64,000 nt of DNA, taken from Escherichia coli (GTDB lineage: Bacteria; Pseudomonadota; Gammaproteobacteria; Enterobacterales; Enterobacteriaceae). This document shows, one piece after another, positions 52,901 through 55,900 of the stretch. Where the stretch lies: NCBI RefSeq assembly GCF_003991155.1, contig NZ_CP031293.1; one strand, 5' to 3'. Position numbers: made by a program. Each line of letters starts with the position of its first letter. The stretch's first letter is position 1.

Positions 52901-55900
52901 CTGGCGAAATCTGACGAAGTGCTGAGCGACCGCGTGAATGCCTCTACTCTGAAAGAGCCGGAAGAAATTAAACTGGCGATGCAGGTTGTGGTGCTACGTG
53001 ACAAGCTAGAGCCGTACTTTGCTGAAGGTCGTTACCAGGATGCGCTGGTCGAACTGGCTGAGCTGCGTGAACCGGTTGATGCCTTCTTCGATAAAGTGAT
53101 GGTCATGGTTGATGACAAAGAATTGCGAATCAACCGTCTTACCATGCTGGAGAAACTGCGCGAATTATTCCTGCGAGTTGCGGATATTTCGCTGTTACAG
53201 TAATAACGCCGTTATTAAAAAGCCTGCCATCTGGCAGGCTTTTTTATCGCTAAATAATAGAGCAACCTTTAATAATCTTCTGCTGAATAAAGATTGTCTC
53301 ATATATTAATTTTATGAGATTTTTTTAGGATTATATCAAGGAGAAGAAACGAACTTATTAAGCTAGAATAGCTGCGGGTGCTTGAGACTGTTTGTCTCAG
53401 GTATTCACCGAAAGGCAGACAGAGAAAAGCCCCACCTGACTATAAATCAAAGTGTGTACTGACCCCAGAAAGTTGGACAGTTAAACACGAGGCATATAGG
53501 TCTGATTCCGATATTCAATTGGAGTCAGACCTTTTAATTTCAGGCTAATTCTTCTGCTGTTGTAGTATTCAATATATTCCGTAACAGCATCCTTCAGCTC
53601 GCTTATATTACTGAACTCATCAAGATAAAAACACTCCGACTTTAAGGTTCCAAAGAAACACTCCACCACAGCATTATCCAGACAATTGCCTTTTCTGGAC
53701 ATGCTTTGTTTAATACCATGTTCTTTAAGGATATTTTGATATCTTCTCATACGATACTGCCATCCCTGGTCAGAGTGCAGAACAGGATGCTCGTGAGGAT
53801 TAAGCTTTTTGAATGCCTGATCGAGCATATTCTCGACCATGTTCATCACTGGTCTTTCCGAAAGGCTGTAAGAAATAACTTCGTTGTTGAAGAGATCTAT
53901 TACTGGAGACAAATACAGCTTGCGCCCATTGACTGCAAATTCAGTAACATCGGTAACCCACTTCTCGTTTGGCCGCGTAGCCTTGAAATCTCTTTGGAGA
54001 ACATTGGGGGCGGTTTGCCCTACCTCTCCTCTGTAAGAGCGGTATCGCTTGACCTTAATCGCTGCCTTCAGTGAGAGGATTCCCATCAGGCGCTGAACAG
54101 CTTTATGGTTAATCTGTTTCCCTTCTCGATGAAGAGACAGCGTGACCCTACGGTATCCGTATCGGCCTCTATTCTCATGATAAATCTCACCAATACGCTT
54201 TTTAACGTCCGCATACTTGTCAGGCTTGCTGAGAGCCTTTAGATGGTAATAAAACGTACTGCGCGGTATCTCCGCAGCCCTGAGAAGCTCATCAAGAGGA
54301 TAAAACTGCCTTAGCTCGTTGAGTACTTTCACTTTTTCGTGGGATGAGCTAAGGCTTTCAGCTTTTTTAGATACACAAGCCGCGTTTCAAGAAATCGAAC
54401 TTGCCTTTCAAGATCCTCAATGCGTCGGTCTTTTGACAGCTCCAATGCTGATGCCGCTTTTTCTGGATCAACTGATATTGCAATGTTTCTTTTGGTGCCA
54501 ATCTTGAGCGCGCGTAAACCAGCTTCTCCGCGCTCTTCATAAACCTTCAGCCACCTGGCTACAGAACCACTACCAGCAAGCATAAAGTGAGCAGCAGCCT
54601 GATTAAGAGACATGTGCTGCTCGATCACAGCTTTCACGACCTTAATACGCAACTCAGGATCAGCACTAACACCTTTAGGTTTGGGAATTAAACCTTTTTC
54701 TCCATGTTTTTCATAGAGGGCAACCCATGTCCTGACCTGGGTTCGGGGGACACCAAAACGTGCCGAGATGATCCTGTAACCATCATCAGTAGTGAAGTAG
54801 TGATTCACGACTTCAAGGCGCTTTTCAAAAGGGTATTTTGGCTTTGACATATCAGGGGCTATTCCATTTCATCGTCCAACAAAATGGGTGCAGTACATAC
54901 TCGTTGGAAATCAACACAGGAGGCTGGGAATGCCGCAGAAATATAGATTACTTTCTTTAATAGTGATTTGTTTCACGCTTTTATTTTTCACCTGGATGAT
55001 AAGAGATTCACTGTGTGAATTGCATATTAAACAGGGGAGTTATGAGCTGGCGGCGTTTTTAGCCTGCAAATTGAAAGAGTAAGCGTCTTCGGCGGGAAGT
55101 TATTCCCGCCTTTCTTACGGCGTTGCGCATTCTCATTGCACCCAAATTTATTCTTCACAAAAATAATAATAGATTTTATTACGCGAACGATTATTTATTT
55201 CCTGAATAAACAAATAAAAAAATCCCCGCCATTTGGCAGGGATCTTAGATTCTGTGCTTTTAAGCAGAGATTACAGGCTGGTTACGTTACCAGCTGCCGG
55301 GCCTTTAGCGCCGCTTTCGATGGTGAAGGACACTTTCTGACCTTCGTCCAGAGATTTGTAACCATCGTTCTGGATAGCAGAGAAGTGTACGAACACGTCT
55401 TTAGAGCCATCGTCAGGAGTGATGAAGCCGAAGCCTTTGTCAGCGTTGAACCATTTTACGATACCAGTCATTTTACCGGACATAGTGTATTACCTTTAAT
55501 AATTAAGTGTGCCTTTCGGCGATATGGCGTGCTTTACAGATTTTGAAGCGTTAAAGGAATGTGCACTACGAGGGGTATCAACGATAACTCTTGAAGGGAC
55601 TTGCCTTACTACACTGCTTTAATGGTCTGTACGTCAAACCGTTGATGTGCATTAAGCCACGCATTGGCGGGTGATGCAACAATTATTTTTCATATTTATG
55701 ATTAATCGGTTGGAAAACGGTCCTGTCATCAGGACCGTAAACAGCAATAAAGTGGATAAAAGTCTATTCCATCAACTGCTTACTTAATGCCGGGTTGGCT
55801 TGAATCAAACGCATCAATTTTAGTTCGGCACTTGAAGGCTTCACGCGTCTGGATTCCCATTCCTTTACCATGGCGACTGATACGCCCAAAACCCGGGCGA

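Follow-up and report, generated by a model that had tools for sequence, protein, structure and literature searches.

An unaltered K-12-type cspA promoter and leader beside an IS150-interrupted hokA locus in Escherichia coli

The cspA gene analysed here carries a canonical wild-type E. coli control region that the neighbouring IS150 element cannot reach, a reading to which we assign a probability of about 95%. The stretch of DNA under study, referred to below as the window, comprises 64,000 nucleotides of E. coli contig NZ_CP031293.1 (assembly GCF_003991155.1). Its yiaG–cspA intergenic region of 280 nt (55484-55763) is letter for letter that of MG1655 (cspA, b3556) and includes the 5'UTR, the cold box, the upstream box, the Shine-Dalgarno sequence, the -10 and -35 hexamers and the UP element. 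An initial annotation had described the approximately 160-nt 5'UTR and the promoter hexamers as intact, and both this identity and a full-length match to Rfam RF01766 bear the description out. IS150 disrupts the hokA/mokA/sokA toxin–antitoxin locus and not cspA.

Results

Conservation of the cspA control region

Aligned base by base with MG1655, window positions 53300-56100 differ at 33 sites, 31 of them substitutions and the rest a 2-bp indel, and no difference falls between 55398 and 55916. Zero differences from the K-12 leader were found in the cold box, the region that the initial annotation had singled out for this comparison. Translation of the gene yields a protein with no amino acid difference from MG1655 CspA (NP_418012.1), and the sole difference in the coding sequence is a synonymous change at codon 29 (GAC versus GAT). 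Besides this codon, the window differs from MG1655 cspA in the terminator loop, and both changes lie outside the leader. The loop (55232-55233) reads AAAT in the window and in CP116067 and ATTT in K-12 and in O111:H8, with the stem unchanged. The two neighbouring changes turn the loop into its reverse complement, which makes this a polymorphism by inversion of the hairpin loop. The elements follow one another as in MG1655 throughout, running from UP element, -35 hexamer, extended -10, cold box, upstream box, Shine-Dalgarno sequence and downstream box to the terminator stem (Table 1).

The window is not K-12, to which its identity is about 98-99% (98.1% over 6.5 kb); strains such as SMS-3-5 agree with it completely along a stretch of 2461 bp. 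Two strains free of IS150 at hokA have the 280-nt intergenic sequence unchanged: CP116067, which is closely related to the window, and the O111:H8 strain CP077565. Both share the cspA promoter, the leader and the flanking genes. Across the species, 5402 of 5422 complete E. coli genomes match the 217-nt segment that comprises UP element, promoter and leader with an identity of 99% or more, and of 30 rows taken at even intervals from the ranking, 24 reach 100%. Given at least 99% identity in so many genomes, the intact leader is the species default. Three natural variants that we inspected carry substitutions in the spacer between -35 and -10, just past the -10 hexamer and at +136, with the cold box unchanged in all three.

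A leader that is really disrupted is found in the complete genome of AVS0967 (CP124398), where IS1 is inserted in the cspA 5'UTR beside the Shine-Dalgarno sequence. The leader in the window is unlike this one.

Table 1. Coordinates of the cspA and hokA features and of their neighbours in the window.
Feature	Position	Strand	Remarks
glyS side	below 53376
hokA 5' leader and sokA remnant	53376-53454	+	far side of IS150
IS150, 1443 bp	53455-54897	-	same junctions as MG1655 annotation 3720633-3722075
insK	53481-54332	-	ORF of 283 aa
insJ	54329-54850	-	ORF of 173 aa
hokA toxin ORF, 50 aa	54930-55082	+	convergent with cspA; severed from its own promoter
ysaE small ORF, 23 aa	55059-55130	-	annotated in K-12; cspA direction
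hokA terminator-like hairpin	55091-55110	+	between hokA and cspA
cspA intrinsic terminator	55216-55246	-	12-bp stem, 4-nt loop, T-run
cspA CDS	55271-55483	-	70 aa; start codon ATG 55481-55483
Downstream box	55458-55471	-	within the cspA CDS
Shine-Dalgarno TAAAGG	55493-55498	-
Upstream box GCCGAAAGGCACA	55508-55520	-	+123 to +135; same as K-12
cspA 5'UTR, 159 nt	55484-55642	-	transcription start 55642; Rfam model begins one base earlier, 55643
Cold box TGACGTACAGA	55626-55636	-	+7 to +17; inside 6-bp 5' hairpin 55624-55640
Extended -10 TGGCTTAAT (TGG-CTTAAT)	55651-55659	-	same as K-12
-35 hexamer TTGCAT	55674-55679	-	3/6 consensus positions; 17-nt spacer to -10
UP element, AT-rich, AAATATGAAAAATAATTG	55680-55697	-	same as K-12
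yiaG	55764-56054	-	upstream neighbour of cspA, on the same strand
yiaF	56368-57198	+	longest ORF listed; K-12 yiaF is 711 nt
ghrB	57248-58234	-	ORF as listed; K-12 ghrB is 975 nt

The promoter

The initial annotation placed leader and promoter at 55484-55680. This range is accurate and holds the 5'UTR, the extended -10 element, the spacer and the -35 hexamer, with the UP element just outside it. TTGCAT, 17 nt of spacer, TGnCTTAAT and an AT-rich tract upstream are all present, as is characteristic of the sigma-70 promoter of cspA. A generic scan for -35/-10 consensus sequences nevertheless missed the cspA promoter, because its hexamers are weak: the -35 hexamer agrees with the consensus at the positions given in Table 1 and the -10 hexamer (55651-55656) at 4 of 6, which makes the scan uninformative here. 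The putative promoter assignment rests on identity to the K-12 sequence at what we take to be the position described for the K-12 cspA promoter in the literature. What the UP element, the extended -10, the upstream box and the downstream box do is established in the cspA literature of the 1990s. Plain consensus scans overlook promoters that depend on a UP element or an extended -10, for which the strongly expressed cspA is an example.

The leader as an RNA element

The Rfam model RF01766, the cspA thermoregulator covering the whole mRNA, matches from 55643 to 55216 over model positions 1-428 of 428. The score of 500.9 bits (E 2.9e-141) compares with a gathering score of 78, and a match of full length at this score excludes chance. 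In agreement with the roughly 160-nt leader of this family, 159 nt are found directly 5' of the CspA ORF. The cold box 11-mer lies within the 5' hairpin of 6 bp, which both the Rfam consensus structure and the predicted fold contain, and upstream box, Shine-Dalgarno sequence and downstream box occur as exact motifs around the start codon. Folding energy lends no independent support to the assignment, as the predicted fold of the leader at 37 °C is no more stable than that of shuffled sequences (z = 0.03). Elsewhere in the window, Rfam reports naRNA4 (nucleoid-associated ncRNA 4, a REP-type element) at 20409-20487 on the minus strand with 63.4 bits, just over the gathering score, and a tRNA scan of the window found none.

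IS150 and its position relative to cspA

The window holds a single copy of IS150, a member of the IS3 family that is recognised by its length of 1443 bp, its terminal inverted repeats (TGTACTG...) and the two consecutive ORFs insJ and insK. From the annotated K-12 copy it differs at 18 of 1443 positions (98.75% identity). From the cspA stop codon to the edge of the element at 54897 there are 373 bp, and from the final T of the terminator (55216) there are 318 bp. The initial annotation had put about 370 bp between terminator and IS150; this distance is right when counted from the stop codon and too large when counted from the terminator. The element sits downstream (3') of cspA, past hokA, and no part of it lies upstream of or inside the cspA transcription unit. 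Both insJ and insK are transcribed in the direction of cspA and head away from it.

A target-site duplication flanking IS150 is absent, the flanks reading GTG (53452-53454) and TAC (54898-54900), and the missing duplication leaves the identification of the element unaffected. In IS-free alleles, 38 bp, AGGCCCCTCTATGCATAGACACCATAAGGTTAGCCTCT, bounded by ...AATCAAAGTG and TACTCGTTGG..., occupy the site at which IS150 stands in the window. CP116067 and the O111:H8 strain CP077565 retain this part of the hokA leader, which the window has lost. Because the 38 bp are missing relative to the empty sites, the insertion was accompanied or later followed by a small deletion.

Among 5426 complete genomes, IS150 is joined to the hokA flank in 1638 (about 30%); the site is empty in 2831 complete genomes. 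The divergence of the element from the K-12 copy (1.25%) is about equal to that of the flanking DNA, which suggests that IS150 at hokA is an old and widely shared insertion allele and would not represent a recent hop.

The interrupted hokA locus

The hokA ORF is intact, yet IS150 stands between it and the stretch with sok and the promoter (53376-53454), where Rfam reports a sok match (53376-53472, 68.8 bits). A contiguous arrangement of promoter, mok leader, sok antisense gene and hok ORF was not found at this locus. The interrupted hokA/mokA/sokA locus of K-12 (b4455, b4647, b4614, insJK) has the same junctions and the same orientation of the element, and mokA and sokA are cut alike. As IS150 splits the hokA ORF from the promoter and sokA region, mokA and sokA are annotated as pseudogenes in MG1655. 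The probable inactivation of the hokA locus by IS150 rests on this annotation and on the comparison with empty sites. Chromosomal hok loci inactivated by IS elements were reportedly first described by Pedersen and Gerdes in 1999. In the literature on hokA together with IS150 we found incidental mentions only. The hokA locus studied earlier was from E. coli C (10.1101/2025.08.07.668861).

HokA of the window carries Gly35 (window position 55036) compared with Glu35 in K-12 (E35G), and the O111:H8 protein has Gly35 plus K47N. The small ORF ysaE, antisense to the 3' end and the terminator hairpin of hokA, is intact with three amino acid differences from K-12 (S6R, I11T and L16R). The ysaE annotated in O111:H8 is shorter, with 19 aa.

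Discussion

That cspA regulation would be unaffected by IS150 is strongly supported, because K-12 has the same arrangement. Many of the classical studies of the cold induction of cspA used the K-12 background, and cspA of K-12 shows normal, strong induction in the cold. The initial annotation had considered regulation probably unaffected, and sequence inference favours this expectation, with a leader equal to that of K-12 and of the IS150-free strains and with IS150 placed 3' of an intact terminator. Given its downstream site, the intact terminator, the hokA gene in between and the transposase genes pointing away, IS150 would be unable to reach the control region of cspA.

In line with the literature, the control region would operate through a sigma-70 promoter with weak hexamers, aided by the UP element and the extended -10, that produces an mRNA with the 159-nt leader. 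At 37 °C, leader and early coding region would fold into an unstable and poorly translated form. Cooling would shift the leader to a fold of greater stability in which the start region is easier to reach; the cold box, paired at first in the 6-bp hairpin at the 5' end, would then pair with distant downstream sequence. CspA itself would also act on the cspA mRNA. As the leader does not differ from the K-12 RNA, which has been studied by structure probing, we infer that the temperature-dependent structure switch would take place here too. Previous work treats the cspA 5'UTR as a segment of 160 nt (PMC6386945). The 5'UTR and the first codons are needed for translation in the cold, and the cspA mRNA is described as a thermosensor whose cold form exposes the start region more (PMC6386945, PMC9947658). 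The review PMC9411577 places the cold box, at 37 °C, in a 5'-terminal stem-loop of 6 bp.

The gene could be taken for a paralogue of cspA with a leader other than the cspA thermosensor, since the PGAP label in many records reads 'cspE: transcription antiterminator/RNA stability regulator CspE', and since cspB, cspG and cspI likewise carry long leaders with a cold box. The protein is, however, identical to MG1655 CspA, and the locus order glyS-IS150-hokA-cspA-yiaG-yiaF-ghrB is that of the K-12 cspA locus; in MG1655 it runs yiaD-ghrB-yiaF-yiaG-cspA-ysaE/hokA-IS150-sokA-glyS, of which the window is the reverse complement. Other records name the same product, WP_000014594.1, 'RNA chaperone/antiterminator CspA'. 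Based on protein identity and gene order we reject the paralogue reading, which retains a barely perceptible probability. PGAP is inconsistent across E. coli genomes, naming WP_000014594.1 CspE in some and CspA in others, and the 'cspE' label on this gene is an annotation inconsistency.

In another rival reading, IS150 would change cspA expression indirectly from the 3' side, by loss of the hokA promoter and thus of transcription converging on the 3' end of cspA, by altered local supercoiling or by altered processing of the mRNA 3' end. Such an influence could build on the convergence of hokA (plus strand) and cspA (minus strand), whose stop codons are 188 bp apart, and on the position of IS150 between the hokA ORF and the promoter and sokA region. 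Against it stand the terminator-like hairpin of hokA, which precedes cspA, the intact cspA terminator and the strong cold induction of cspA in K-12 with the same insertion. Promoter and leader are moreover identical with and without IS150 and give no sign of a compensating change, and we consider the indirect effect very unlikely. The transcription units could also be coupled in the opposite sense. The genes for cspA, ysaE and the IS150 transposase all point in the same direction, and on this strand we saw no second terminator-like site in the stretch from the cspA terminator to ysaE. Read-through from the cspA promoter, which is induced very strongly in the cold, could then feed ysaE translation and transposase expression and couple cold shock to transposition, which we regard as similarly improbable; if true, cspA would influence IS150 and not the other way round. 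The preferred reading remains a wild-type cspA control region beyond the reach of the element.

Nothing about the cspA leader is out of the ordinary. Together with the promoter it belongs to the most invariant non-coding stretches of the species, and the value of the present comparison is that of a negative result: the strain combines a standard cspA control region with a common K-12-type IS150 allele at hokA.
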